NCBI RefSeq assembly: GCF_016026235.1 | Contig: NZ_CP065613.1 | Length of the DNA stretch: 64,000 nt | Source of the DNA: Escherichia coli | GTDB taxonomy: Bacteria; Pseudomonadota; Gammaproteobacteria; Enterobacterales; Enterobacteriaceae | Reading direction: 5' to 3' (one strand) | Shown here: one piece after another, positions 55,461 through 60,047 of the stretch | Numbering within the stretch: the first letter of the stretch is position 1 | Layout: each line of letters begins with the position of its first letter | Position numbers and translations under genes: made by a program | Notes under the pieces: model-generated | What the model was told of the DNA's origin: nothing | The model's input: only the letters and a program-made list of their open reading frames with translations | Database searches by the model: none

Positions 55461-58400
55461 TCAGAACGACCAGTTCACACCAGCCACCGCGTTCCACGGG
55501 GATTCCACATCGGCACCGTTGCTATACCCCACCCCGAGATGCCCGCTTAACGTACTGCTGAATGAGGCTTTAATACCTGCCTGGTATATTCCACGTCTGC
55601 CCGACAAATCATTGACGAAATTACCGTCATTATTCACCTTCACCCGGTTATCATCGACAAATTCTTTGCGCACAGCCGCCTTCAGCCACGGCTCAACTTC
55701 CATACCGTTTCCCAGACGCATGTTGTAACTCAGCGTTGCGCCCAGTTCACGATATATACTGCGGGTATCGACTGATTTCGATTTCATGCCATTGGATAAA
55801 TGATATTCGGGGTTATCAGCGGTGAACCCCGTTAACGATGCATACGGCGTCAGGTTCCAGTTACCATCGGTAAATCGCATCCCGGTTTCAATGTGCCCCC
55901 CCAGCCCGTTGCTGTGATAACTGCCGTTGGCGGCTCCACCGCTGCTCATTTTACCGGCTACGTTACTTTCAAAACGGTTCAGCTTCACGATACCGTCCAG
56001 ATAGAAACCACTTTCATGTTCCCAACTGGCATAGCCGCCCAGAGAATAACTGCCCACACTGCCATGTCCTCCACGATCAAAACCGATATGTGAATGGGAA
56101 TAACCCATAAAAGCGCCCAGCGTCGCAATCCCCTCAGGAATATCATTACGGCTGTCGATCCCCACTGTCATTCCGGTCAGCGTCTGCTCAAACCCGGCAC
56201 CCGCATCGGTGGTGACATTATTACGGGTGTTATACGTCGCCCCCCAGACATTATTGTTGTGTGGACTCGCTTTCATTATGTTCAACCGCTCGCGAATACT
56301 GTTTAGCTCAGCATCAAATACCAACGGTAATGTTGCAGCCATATTGAGTACGGCTGCCGTAGAAGGCGTGATGCGTTTCTCCGGAACGGGTGTCGGCGTT
56401 GGATCGGGAGTCGGGTCTGGTTTCGGATCCGGTTTTGGGTCTGGTTTTGGATCCGGCTTCGGATTTGGGTTGGGATTTGGGTTGGGATCCGGGTTGGGTT
56501 TGACATCATTGGTCAGGTTCCAGTTGCTGTTGCCGTCGCTTTTCAGGACATACTCATAGGTCCCAAGATCAACGAAACCGCCGGTATTGCCCAGCGTAAA
56601 CGAAGCATCCCCTCCCCCTGTTTTCACCAGCGTCATCGCATCGTCAGACTGAGGGCTGACGCCGGTATCCTGAACAAAGATTTTAAAATTACCAGTGGCG
56701 TTGTTGTTGACGACCAGTTGATCGCCCCGGGAGCCAGCAACGTTGGTATGCAGGTAGAAATTACCGCTGCCGGAAAGTTCATTGGTTGTCAGCGTATTGT
56801 AGATACCGTTAGTTGTGGCAGGCGCTGCTGTTTGTGCTGATAAATAAACATCACCGTCGTTGAGTAGCAAACTGTTTACTCTATATTCGCAGTTGCTGGT
56901 ACCTGCACAGGAATTATTGCTGTTAAGCCAGACACTGCCCCGGCTGGCAGCCGTCAGGTCGGCAAGCGTGGTATCGACGCCATTTCCCAGAGTTAATGTC
57001 GCGCTATCGGTAATCCGGACCGCCCCTTCAAGTTTTACTGGCGTAACATTATCCCGTGGCGTGATTAACGACAGGCTTCCTGTCGCGCCACTGACCGATG
57101 CATCCGCCAGCGTACCTGCGTAGACGATTGCCGTCCCGCCAGCGACCTGTAGATCTTCTGCCCGGGCCAGAGCCTGAAACTCATCTTTTGACCGCCCAAG
57201 GGTATATTGCCCACCAGAGTTAACCTTTGTGGCGGAGTCCTGACCCAGGTTTTGCATTGCACCACCCTTGCCAACCGTGGAGTCATGGGCTTCGGTACCT
57301 GCTAATACCAATAAATTACCACCATTTTCCAGCAACATATTGGTCGCTAAATTTCCGGCAATGGAAAAGGTGCCGTACTGGTGAGTACCGCTGATTTCAA
57401 TACCGTTAGCCGTGCTCGTCTGGAGAGCGGCACCGCTGTTCTGGACGATATCTGTCGCTTTGCCATTATCGTTGACTGTCAGCGTTCCGCCTTCATTGAT
57501 CGTTGTTTTTATTGCTTCTCCGTTAGCTGAAACTGTTTGTATTCCGCCGTCGTTAATTGTTGTCTCATTCGCCACACCCTCGACGATTTGTTCACCGCCG
57601 GTGAGCGTCGTGCCTGTCGCAGTGGCTTTTGTTTTGACGATCTCCCGTCCGCCCGTATTGACCTGTGTTTTGTCAGAAGAGGTGTCTGACTCCACGGTTA
57701 ACACGCCGCCATTTGCCAGCTGGATATTGTTCGCCGCATCCTGCTCAATGCTGAACGCGACGCCATCAGCGCGTGTCCCTGTGACCCGCGTCGCCCTGGT
57801 GGTTGCAACCAACGCGCCCTGGCTACTCTGCTGTATCCCCGTTGCGCTGCCTTTCTCCCGCACATCGAGTGTGCCGCCGTCATTAAGCACCGAGTTTTCA
57901 GCCAGACCGCCCTCATTAACTACCTGTGAACCCCCATTAATAATGGAACCTTCCGCTGTCCCGTTTGCCATAATTTGTTGTAGGCCAGAGACGATATCGG
58001 TATTGATTGCCTTACCATAATTCTGAACGGTTTGCGTGCCACCATTGATGTGTGTTTTCTCTGTTGACCCACCATCAACAATTTGTTCACCACTTTCGAT
58101 ATTTGCTTCAGTGGCTAAACCATATACCGTTTGCTTGCCACCTTTGATATTTGCTTTATCAGAAGTGGCACTGGCATATATTGTTTGGGTGCCAGCACTA
58201 TTGAGTACAGTGCCAACATCTTTTCCATAAACATCCATTTTGCCGTTGGCATTAATAATCGTGTCAACTGCCCGGGAACCAGTGACGACTGTTAATGAGC
58301 CAGCGTTTTCCAGCACTACATTTTTAGCTTCTGAATTCCTGATGTAGAAAGCATCACCATAACTGTTGGTTCCTTCGATAAGTGTTCCGGAGGTCGTGGA

Positions 58401-60047
58401 AGCAATTAATGCGCCGCCGGATTGTTGCTCAACATGCTTAGCCTCACCACCGTCCTGAACCTCCAGAACGCCGCCATTATTAAGTCTGGTGCCATCTGTT
58501 TTAGCCTCCTTCTGGACAATCAGCTTACCGCCAGCATCAATGGTAGTATTTTTCGCCGAGGTTTTAGCCACTACCGTCAGTTCGCCGGTATTTTCCAGCA
58601 CAACATAATTAGCCTCCCCTCCGGTAATAGTGAAGTGAGAGAGCTTGTTGTATCCTTCGATATCAGTCCCTGCACCCGTGTTGGCAACTAAAGCACTGCC
58701 CGTCTCCTGGTTAACCCCATGTGCAATACCGCCGGTATAGACAATCAGCGAGCCTCCGGCGCTAATATTGCTGCCAATTGCCGTACCATCTTTCTCAACA
58801 ACCTGCCGGCTCCCGGAGGATATAATTGTTGTGTCAGCTTTCCCGCCGCTTTTGATATTTTGCGTTCCGCTGTTGATATTGGTGCCTGTGGCTATGCCAT
58901 AATTATTAATATTCTGTGTGCCACCATTAATTATGGTATTTGTCGCGTTTCCTGCAACATCCATAACCCCGCCATTATCTATTCGGGTCGCATCAGCTTT
59001 AGCATTGGTTAAAACTGACATTGTTCCTTTATCTTTGATAATAGTCTTGTTTGCCGAACCATATGCGTTTATGTCTAAATGACCACCGTTTTCCAGCAAC
59101 ACATTGTCTGCCACGTGATTGTGGATGGAGAATGCACCTTCACTATTCGTACCGTTCACCGTCGTACCGTTAGTGTTTGTTTTTAAAATTGCACCATCGT
59201 GCTGGGTAACATTTGTTGCCGTACCACCACTAACATCAAGCACGCCACCGGAATAAACTTCAATAACATCCGAGGTGCTGGTGTTATCAACAATTTGCGT
59301 GCCACCAGAATAGATCTGCGTATTTTTTGCCGTTGACTTACTATTCAGAGACTGAGTTCCGCCTTCAATCGTCGTGTCCAGCGCACGGCTCTCATATACT
59401 CTTTGCTCACCGCCATTTTTAATGGTTGTTGTTTCTACTGTGCTCTGTTCAACATACTGTCGACCACCATTTATGGTTGTGTTCGTTGCCAGACTTCCTT
59501 GCGTGATGTCCTGAGAGCCAGACTTATTTATCGTTGTACTGTCGACATGCTCCTGAGTTGTTACTCGTTGGCTGCCACCATCAATGATTGTTCCATTCGC
59601 TGTCCCCCCACTTATGTGTGAATTACCACCCTTAATTGTCGTTCCATTGCTGATACCACCTGTATAAACGTCCTGATTGCCACTCTCGATTGTCGTACCT
59701 GTGGAAATACCCCCGTCATGAATTGACTGTCTGCCACCGTTAATGGTTGTATTATTAGCCTGCCCCACAAAATTGTTATGACTTCCTATATCTTGATATC
59801 CACCAGATTCAATAAGACTTCCATTAGATACCCCGCCATGAACATTCTGCTGGCCATGGTTGATAATATGAGTGTTATTTGTTGTACCTCGTTCATCTAC
59901 TCTTTGGCTGCCATCTACAGTCTCATCGTTTACCACACCAATAACATTAGTAGTGAAAGCAGCCTCTCCAGGCTGGGCATATATTAAGGCAGATATCAAT
60001 AAGGAAAGTACTGAGCGGCGACAATAATGGGGACTGGTCCTGTTCAT
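55461..60047 (-). CDS. ypjA: adhesin-like autotransporter (type Va secretion; YpjA-like)
   Basis: ORF 55461..60176; start taken at MNRTSPHYCRRSVLSLLISALIYAQPGEA (GAGGA about 9 nt upstream), about 1528 aa; long Gly/Thr/Asn-rich beta-helical passenger; (PN/PD/PK)n linker; C-terminal beta-barrel ending ...GVNWSF. Confidence 0.88.
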   Translation of the reverse strand: MNRTSPHYCRRSVLSLLISALIYAQPGEAAFTTNVIGVVNDETVDGSQRVDERGTTNNTHIINHGQQNVHGGVSNGSLIESGGYQDIGSHNNFVGQANNTTINGGRQSIHDGGISTGTTIESGNQDVYTGGISNGTTIKGGNSHISGGTANGTIIDGGSQRVTTQEHVDSTTINKSGSQDITQGSLATNTTINGGRQYVEQSTVETTTIKNGGEQRVYESRALDTTIEGGTQSLNSKSTAKNTQIYSGGTQIVDNTSTSDVIEVYSGGVLDVSGGTATNVTQHDGAILKTNTNGTTVNGTNSEGAFSIHNHVADNVLLENGGHLDINAYGSANKTIIKDKGTMSVLTNAKADATRIDNGGVMDVAGNATNTIINGGTQNINNYGIATGTNINSGTQNIKSGGKADTTIISSGSRQVVEKDGTAIGSNISAGGSLIVYTGGIAHGVNQETGSALVANTGAGTDIEGYNKLSHFTITGGEANYVVLENTGELTVVAKTSAKNTTIDAGGKLIVQKEAKTDGTRLNNGGVLEVQDGGEAKHVEQQSGGALIASTTSGTLIEGTNSYGDAFYIRNSEAKNVVLENAGSLTVVTGSRAVDTIINANGKMDVYGKDVGTVLNSAGTQTIYASATSDKANIKGGKQTVYGLATEANIESGEQIVDGGSTEKTHINGGTQTVQNYGKAINTDIVSGLQQIMANGTAEGSIINGGSQVVNEGGLAENSVLNDGGTLDVREKGSATGIQQSSQGALVATTRATRVTGTRADGVAFSIEQDAANNIQLANGGVLTVESDTSSDKTQVNTGGREIVKTKATATGTTLTGGEQIVEGVANETTINDGGIQTVSANGEAIKTTINEGGTLTVNDNGKATDIVQNSGAALQTSTANGIEISGTHQYGTFSIAGNLATNMLLENGGNLLVLAGTEAHDSTVGKGGAMQNLGQDSATKVNSGGQYTLGRSKDEFQALARAEDLQVAGGTAIVYAGTLADASVSGATGSLSLITPRDNVTPVKLEGAVRITDSATLTLGNGVDTTLADLTAASRGSVWLNSNNSCAGTSNCEYRVNSLLLNDGDVYLSAQTAAPATTNGIYNTLTTNELSGSGNFYLHTNVAGSRGDQLVVNNNATGNFKIFVQDTGVSPQSDDAMTLVKTGGGDASFTLGNTGGFVDLGTYEYVLKSDGNSNWNLTNDVKPNPDPNPNPNPNPKPDPKPDPKPDPKPDPTPDPTPTPVPEKRITPSTAAVLNMAATLPLVFDAELNSIRERLNIMKASPHNNNVWGATYNTRNNVTTDAGAGFEQTLTGMTVGIDSRNDIPEGIATLGAFMGYSHSHIGFDRGGHGSVGSYSLGGYASWEHESGFYLDGIVKLNRFESNVAGKMSSGGAANGSYHSNGLGGHIETGMRFTDGNWNLTPYASLTGFTADNPEYHLSNGMKSKSVDTRSIYRELGATLSYNMRLGNGMEVEPWLKAAVRKEFVDDNRVKVNNDGNFVNDLSGRRGIYQAGIKASFSSTLSGHLGVGYSNGADVESPWNAVAGVNWSF
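56395..56505. repeat. degenerate tandem hexanucleotide repeats encoding the Pro-X dipeptide linker of the autotransporter
   Basis: ggatccggttttgggtctggttttggatccggcttcggatttgggttgggatttgggttgggatccgggttgggtttg encodes PNPDPNPNPNPNPKPDPKPDPKPDPKPDPTPDPTPTP on the minus strand. Confidence 0.85.

Follow-up and report, generated by a model that had tools for sequence, protein, structure and literature searches.

Does the proline-rich linker of an Escherichia coli autotransporter adhesin change length in frame, and if so, how quickly and to what effect? The question is raised by ypjA, the gene for the adhesin-like autotransporter YpjA, named EhaD in enterohaemorrhagic E. coli (EHEC), as it occurs in a stretch of 64,000 nucleotides of E. 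coli DNA (contig NZ_CP065613.1 of assembly GCF_016026235.1), which is called the window here and supplies all positions. The gene lies on the minus strand at 55461..60047, and its product carries a run of alternating X-Pro dipeptides between passenger and barrel. The answer reached here, which we hold to be highly probable, is that ypjA encodes a type Va YpjA/EhaD adhesin with a disordered X-Pro spacer, and that slippage or recombination gives this spacer a slow, in-frame length polymorphism.

The spacer, residues 1183-1222 (KPNPDPNPNPNPNPKPDPKPDPKPDPKPDPTPDPTPTPVP), is encoded at 56382..56501 on the minus strand, and was delimited by translation, by a structure model and by length comparison among strains. 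Proline occupies 20 of 20 alternate positions in this (X-Pro)20 run and only 14 of the 1488 residues elsewhere in the protein (0.9%), a pattern far beyond chance. The run is preceded by the last autochaperone strand (...NWNLTNDV) and followed by the beginning of the pore helix (EKRITPST...). This placement, with the passenger base on one side and the pore helix on the other, argues that the segment is an extracellular spacer.

The DNA that encodes this regular peptide is a degenerate repeat. The twenty 6-mers have a mean pairwise identity of 62%, and only the CC of the proline codon is common to all of them. When the spacer DNA is compared with itself, a shift of 6 bp gives 56% identity, whereas shifts of 12 and 24 bp give 71% and 70%. 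Tandem Repeats Finder detects periods of 12 and 24 with 78-84% matches, and no exact direct repeat is longer than 16 nt. Comparison among strains picks out two tandem copies of the 12-bp unit CCCAACCCAAAT (Pro-Asn-Pro-Asn) at 56463..56486 on the minus strand. On the same strand, at 56412..56453, the 24-bp unit GATCCAAAACCAGACCCAAAACCG (codons D-P-K-P-D-P-K-P) is followed by an 18-bp imperfect copy. The initial annotation of the window had described a (Pro-X)n linker encoded by degenerate tandem repeats, which is borne out by the perfect X-Pro alternation and the 12/24-bp repeat. Its claim that the units are near-identical and 6 bp long has to be given up, given 6-mers that are 62% alike and an actual period of 12 or 24 bp. 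The peptide that it placed at 56395..56505 is present, with coordinates shifted by about 7 nt, such that the 37-residue core maps to 56388..56498. On the plus strand, opposite the linker, an open reading frame (ORF) of 116 residues at 56209..56559 is very unlikely to be a gene and was dismissed: it reads the Pro codons in reverse complement, which makes it Gly-rich, it falls within ypjA and it is unannotated.

Comparison of orthologues shows that the linker length does vary within the species. Two systematic samples, each of 58 evenly spaced matches, were drawn from the roughly 2,500 of 5,426 complete E. coli genomes that contain the segment. Allele frequencies are given as span lengths in these samples, and the position of the indels was confirmed in 19 loci that were fetched and read directly; these loci were picked for diversity, such that allele counts among them are not frequencies. 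With a 711-bp query, linkers of 38, 36, 40 and 28 residues were found in 29, 20, 8 and 1 of the 58 genomes, and with a 240-bp query in 30, 18, 10 and 0. The dominant lengths are thus 38 residues (about 50%), 36 residues (about 32%) and 40 residues (about 15%), and these three alleles together account for more than 95% of genomes. Among the 19 loci, seven lengths were read: 24, 28, 36, 38, 40, 44 and 48 residues. The alleles differ by whole multiples of 6 bp, always within the repeat, and none of them breaks the X-Pro register. A neighbouring 240-bp segment of ypjA that served as a control had the same length in 39 of 39 sampled genomes, so the common indels are specific to the linker. The initial annotation had proposed that the linker could expand or contract in frame, and would have been contradicted by a single linker length in every homologue; the series from 24 to 48 residues, in steps of 6 bp beside an invariant control, agrees with its proposal.

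The linker also varies by substitution (N/I, D/E, D/G, D/N and K/T). The 19 diversity-picked sequences encode 16 distinct protein alleles, all with a perfect register, versus 8-11 distinct sequences for 180-bp flanks. A nucleotide diversity of 0.14 for the linker, versus 0.01-0.02 for the flanks, is not relied on; MAFFT collected the gaps at a single end of the repeat and so inflated the value. Synthetic queries with linkers of 24 and 48 residues did not enrich for the rare lengths, as BLAST split most of the alignments, and natural alleles of 24 and 48 residues and K-12-type derivatives still surfaced. A protein search with the C-terminal 482 residues returned mostly partial proteins and paralogues, and was used for comparison across genera and not for allele counts. 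Partial proteins in a large protein collection include E. coli linkers of 20 and 22 residues, one of 18 residues from an unconfirmed species, and E. albertii linkers of 30 and 32 residues. One partial YpjA-like protein of 313 residues, P0115 from a Logan assembly, exits the X-Pro frame within the linker (KPDPKPDPKP, then IRNQTRLPIQ), by either a frameshift in the repeat or an assembly error.

The pace of change can be judged from closely related genomes. In O157:H7 strain OK1, an exact extra tandem copy of the 24-bp unit gives a linker of 48 residues, versus 40 residues in other O157:H7 strains. The copy number of CCCAACCCAAAT is one in WP4-S18, two in the window and in O157:H7, three in GPT24-02 and four in O55:H7 DEC5B. 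The K-12-type diagnostic sites ATC and GACCCT are common to five alleles, those of 24, 28, 36 and 40 residues and the usual one of 38. At the same time, every O157:H7-labelled genome in both systematic samples has a linker of 40 residues. More than 25 K-12 derivatives all have 38 residues; among them are C600, J53 and MC4100 and a set of 19 closely related strains (labelled 1A to 9FA) with the gene at essentially the same coordinates.

The same data bear on the idea of a contingency-type hypermutable repeat, in which length would change at high frequency and linkers of mixed length would coexist within one culture. Tandem repeats do exist at this locus, and at least one change has occurred within a clone (O157:H7 OK1), alongside several K-12-type derivatives. 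Yet where a contingency locus would have a long tract of identical short units, the units here are degenerate, with an identity of 62-71% and a longest exact repeat of 16 nt. Where it would shift the reading frame or promoter spacing, the changes in complete genomes are all of 6n bp within the coding sequence (CDS), such that on/off switching is impossible. Where it would vary frequently within clones, one variant, OK1, stands against the uniform lengths of the sampled O157:H7 genomes and of the K-12-derived genomes, the 19 closely related strains among them. Hypermutability is therefore very improbable indeed. Given the degeneracy of the repeats and the in-frame nature of all the changes, the alleles compared point to a slow, mostly lineage-following length polymorphism that arises by slippage or recombination, and to no contingency switch.

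For the mechanism, we infer slippage in the repeat and a rod-like conformation of the spacer, and any effect of length on exposure of the adhesin is an inference too. Occasional replication slippage, or unequal recombination between short exact repeats of at most 16 nt, would add or remove blocks of 6n bp. Such changes would disturb neither the reading frame nor the X-Pro register and could produce an allelic length series in the species. A strict X-Pro alternation in which X is polar or charged (Asn, Asp, Lys, Thr) should be unable to form either helix or sheet. TonB, with Glu-Pro and Lys-Pro repeats, and trypanosome procyclin, with Glu-Pro and Asp-Pro repeats, use alternating X-Pro with a charged X as extended, rigid spacers. 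By analogy, the YpjA spacer would most likely be an extended, polyproline-II-like rod that may hold the passenger at a distance of some nanometres from the barrel. With a rise of 0.31 nm per residue, simple geometry suggests a rod of about 12 nm for 40 residues and of about 7-15 nm for 24-48 residues. It is plausible that spacer length alters surface exposure, for example through the lipopolysaccharide or capsule layer.

The identity and state of the gene were judged by comparison with other E. coli genomes. Megablast of the whole gene against the complete genomes gives 97-100% identity over 100% coverage to loci annotated as "ypjA: adhesin-like autotransporter YpjA/EhaD", and 2,435 genomes contain annotated ypjA/EhaD at 95-100% nucleotide identity with coverage of at least 80%. 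Near-identical full-length sequence and conserved neighbours at the chromosomal locus place the gene in the YpjA/EhaD orthologue group, and by these matches the locus is identified as chromosomal E. coli ypjA (EhaD in EHEC), a known gene. An uninterrupted minus-strand ORF spans 55461..60176. The start chosen is the ATG at 60047, which is equivalent to the RefSeq CDS start of orthologues and gives a protein of 1528 residues; the GTG at 60176 was rejected because the RefSeq orthologue annotations begin at the equivalent of this ATG. From the ORF, its translation, the nucleotide identity to annotated genes and the RefSeq start, the CDS at 55461..60047 (1528 codons and a stop) is judged intact. 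Only one genome matches the window ypjA at 99% identity or above (NZ_CP065615.1, strain FDAARGOS_943), and there the gene, at 6130..11983, is split by IS600; the window copy is intact. Elsewhere ypjA is interrupted by IS1203, truncated at the N-terminus or frameshifted, and the gene is often disrupted or missing. The part that encodes linker and barrel is found in only about 2,500 of the 5,426 complete genomes (about 47%). Some part of ypjA is matched by 5,326 of the 5,426, probably via repeat-containing paralogues or remnants.

In YejO-type paralogues, both anchor motifs are joined directly (...SWSLAENRAQITPST...), without an insert. Homologues from Citrobacter, Salmonella, Klebsiella, Erwinia and E. 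albertii have Pro-rich inserts of about 10-47 residues at the identical position, mostly without strict alternation. In E. albertii, the X-Pro register is kept despite many substitutions. On sequence comparison, the spacer is best described as an insertion module.

An insertion of this kind might also be neutral, that is, a tolerated low-complexity segment whose changes in length are a mutational by-product under relaxed constraint and have no effect on the adhesin. This explanation is a serious rival, possible though on balance unlikely. The YejO-type paralogues function as autotransporters without any insert, the inserts of other genera differ greatly in length and composition, ypjA is frequently a pseudogene or absent, the length alleles mostly track lineage, and the repeat unit alone can account for the 6n-bp rule. 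A purely neutral spacer is harder to reconcile with the perfect register in all 16 protein alleles and in E. albertii, which suggests selection on the alternation, or with the recurrence of a Pro-rich insert across genera at exactly this position.

Several observations weigh against the explanation preferred here. The frequent disruption or absence of ypjA fits weak selection, so length differences may lack consequence. The rare length variants, among them those of OK1, DEC5B, LR-24 and Z1323PEC0012, each come from single assemblies, and the gene of O55:H7 DEC5B is also annotated as frameshifted, such that assembly error is possible for rare variants. Serotype O169:H41 is found with both the 36- and the 40-residue allele, which argues against tight coupling of length to O-antigen type. 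In a stronger form of the proposal, spacer length would be an adaptive dial, and slippage would let lineages tune how far the beta-helix stands off, some 7-15 nm, to suit the thickness of their O-antigen or capsule. Surface polymers reportedly mask short adhesins. We consider the adaptive dial quite unlikely; if it were true, linker alleles would co-vary with the type of surface polysaccharide beyond what phylogeny predicts.

Variation in an exposed, Pro-rich repeat could alternatively reflect antigenic diversification. The linker would then be an immunodominant epitope, with repeat number and residues selected for immune escape, as is considered for the GGFGP and PQP repeats of Bordetella pertactin. 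Pertactin varies by single-nucleotide polymorphisms and by repeat number in two regions (PMC3966384). In YpjA, the domain just ahead of the linker is homologous to the C-terminal region of the pertactin passenger. The linker has many substitutions besides its indels, and protein alleles outnumber flank sequences as noted above. However, the 19 sequences that give this excess were chosen for diversity, most of the species has one of three alleles, which clones retain, and no reports of YpjA expression in vivo or of its immunogenicity were found or examined. Antigenic diversification is thus an improbable explanation, and slow, lineage-following length polymorphism of a spacer is preferred.

The remainder of the protein has the architecture expected of such an adhesin. 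A putative Sec signal peptide, residues 1-29 (MNRTSPHYCRRSVLSLLISALIYAQPGEA; 59961..60047, minus strand, as are all features of the protein), was read by eye from the basic and hydrophobic N-terminus of the translation, and the signal peptide of K-12 YpjA is given as 29 residues (PMC13101318). The passenger, encoded at 56880..59960, consists of Thr/Gly/Asn-rich beta-helix repeats, with 11 stretches that match Pfam AIDA (PF16168, E 9e-145) and 11 that match the strand-loop-strand repeat of NCBIfam TIGR04415. Residues 30-1050 contain 15% Gly, 13% Thr and 9% Asn. A pertactin-like junction or autochaperone domain, residues 1057-1179 (56511..56879), matches Pfam PF03212 (Pertactin; E 2e-45, 154 bits versus a cut-off of 22) and aligns to residues 430-534 of P.69 pertactin. 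An autochaperone domain of EhaD is listed (PMC5767081). After the spacer, a pore-plugging alpha-helix is predicted by the structure model for residues 1228-1258 (56274..56366). The C-terminal outer-membrane beta-barrel, residues 1267-1528 (55464..56249), is recognised by Pfam, NCBIfam and Foldseek: residues 1267-1506 match PF03797 (Autotransporter beta-domain; E 3.9e-46, 158 bits versus a cut-off of 26), the TIGR01414 autotransporter barrel model matches at E 9e-100, and Foldseek finds the BrkA beta-domain (3qq2) at E 4e-24 with a TM-score of 0.89-0.91 normalised by target length.

For residues 1047-1528, AlphaFold was run with 24 aligned homologues, and the model has a mean predicted local distance difference test score (pLDDT) of 82. 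In order, it comprises pertactin-like beta structure (pLDDT mostly 80-95), a disordered stretch, a helix and the barrel. The disordered stretch, fragment residues 138-176, has a pLDDT of about 33 and no secondary structure; it corresponds to the X-Pro run, and nowhere else does the model contain long disorder. The helix comprises 31 residues (fragment residues 182-212) with a pLDDT of about 87-90. The modelled barrel and helix resemble the translocators BrkA, EspP, Hbp, AIDA-I (4mee) and NalP, and the preceding domain resembles pertactin. With a 12-stranded PF03797 barrel, a predicted pore helix and a beta-helical passenger that ends in an autochaperone/junction domain, the protein is, by domain matches and model, assigned to the classical type Va, AIDA-like autotransporter adhesins. 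The matches to the NCBIfam equivalogs auto_Ag43 (336 bits) and auto_AIDA-I (267 bits) fall below the cut-off of 1200 for each, and these scores indicate that YpjA is related to Ag43/Cah and AIDA-I and is not a member of either equivalog. The initial annotation had recognised an autotransporter of about 1500 residues at 55461-60047 with a passenger of Thr/Gly/Asn-rich beta-helix repeats, and the length of 1528 residues, the agreement of the start, the Pfam and NCBIfam autotransporter domains, and the composition and AIDA stretches of the passenger all fit that description.

A second, rare site of in-frame indels is AQTA, residues 1071-1074 (56826..56837), which is revealed by a deletion of four residues in strain 100416. 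It falls in a loop of the pertactin-like domain with a pLDDT below 50 (fragment residues 26-33), which apart from the X-Pro run is the model's sole low-confidence loop, and was unchanged in length in 39 of 39 sampled genomes. Some orthologues are shorter still by two residues, somewhere in the passenger. Downstream of the gene, 49 nt past the stop codon, a consensus scan gives weak evidence of a terminator-like hairpin at 55398..55412 on the minus strand.

The neighbours of ypjA resemble a CP4-57-like island, with a CbtA/YeeU toxin-antitoxin pair, RadC, an antirestriction protein, YpjCB and tRNA-Ile, and their synteny is kept. Directly downstream of ypjA and convergent with it, a YeeU-family antitoxin and a CbtA-family toxin are encoded at 54370..55102 on the plus strand, preceded by the DUF987, RadC and antirestriction genes of the island. 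A minus-strand open frame of 449 residues (60983..62332) occupies the place of the YpjCB family gene and appears uninterrupted in the window; the annotation of strain MB57 gives this gene an internal stop, and in FDAARGOS_943 it is interrupted by IS1. Further away, a minus-strand gene at 37448..41875 encodes a NACHT nucleoside triphosphatase (NTPase) of 1475 residues (Pfam PF05729, E 3e-12). Its N-terminus, residues about 8-145, has PADLOC matches of nuclease type (Avs1b at 4e-11, SAVED_PDDEXK, Effector endonuclease and LmuA), and from these matches the product looks like an anti-phage candidate of the Avs or bacterial-NLR type. Immediately upstream on the same strand is an ORF of 1260 residues (41880..45662). 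Neither this ORF nor those at 36003..37496 and 34186..35883 have a Pfam or PADLOC match.

According to reviews, YpjA/EhaD promotes adhesion and biofilm formation and is grouped with AIDA-I, Ag43 and TibA, with its mechanism and structure undescribed (PMC3796261, PMC9289746, PMC4076661). YpjA is also already in use as a scaffold for surface display (PMC13101318), and the natural series of linker lengths could be of use for the engineering of autotransporter surface display. The series could also help to ask whether spacer length affects the masking of adhesins by O-antigen or capsule. Linker length can serve as a minor typing marker; otherwise its significance is limited, and it opens no long-standing question. 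No report of a ypjA linker length series was found in the literature searched, and the series is an unsurprising addition to a described class.

The resemblance to TonB and procyclin is compositional only, and homology was rejected: Pfam Trypan_PARP scores 35 bits versus a cut-off of 100, and NCBIfam TonB 20 bits versus 315. Cellular location and partners also differ from those of YpjA. A closer counterpart is TibA of enterotoxigenic E. coli, in which an extra proline-rich domain, residues 627-677, lies between the junction region and the membrane-embedded domain (PMC3835316). Compared by description, it has the same position as the YpjA spacer and a similar size. TibA is glycosylated by a dedicated heptosyltransferase, whereas no such gene of the aah/tibC type is found among the annotated neighbours of ypjA in the syntenic region, though target-type repeats (TIGR04415) are present. 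In Bordetella pertactin, regions 1 (GGFGP) and 2 (PQP) are Pro-containing passenger repeats whose copy number differs among isolates (PMC3966384). YpjA fits this pattern, with a tandem repeat containing Pro, towards the C-terminal end of its passenger, that varies in copy number among isolates. The repeat motif and organism differ, and variation in pertactin is discussed with regard to vaccine pressure, a context not known for YpjA. The nearest relatives are the orthologues YpjA of K-12 and EhaD of EHEC O157:H7, which are 95-98% identical in nucleotide sequence along the whole gene and share with the window copy the order of domains and the neighbours (the CbtA/YeeU toxin-antitoxin pair, YpjCB and tRNA-Ile). 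The window linker of 40 residues, versus 38 in K-12, has the length of the O157:H7 allele and is one residue apart from it (TPDP versus TPEP); the differences are allelic only. In short, the gene, its family and Pro-rich autotransporter spacers are already described, and the allelic series of 24-48 residues is a small addition to them.

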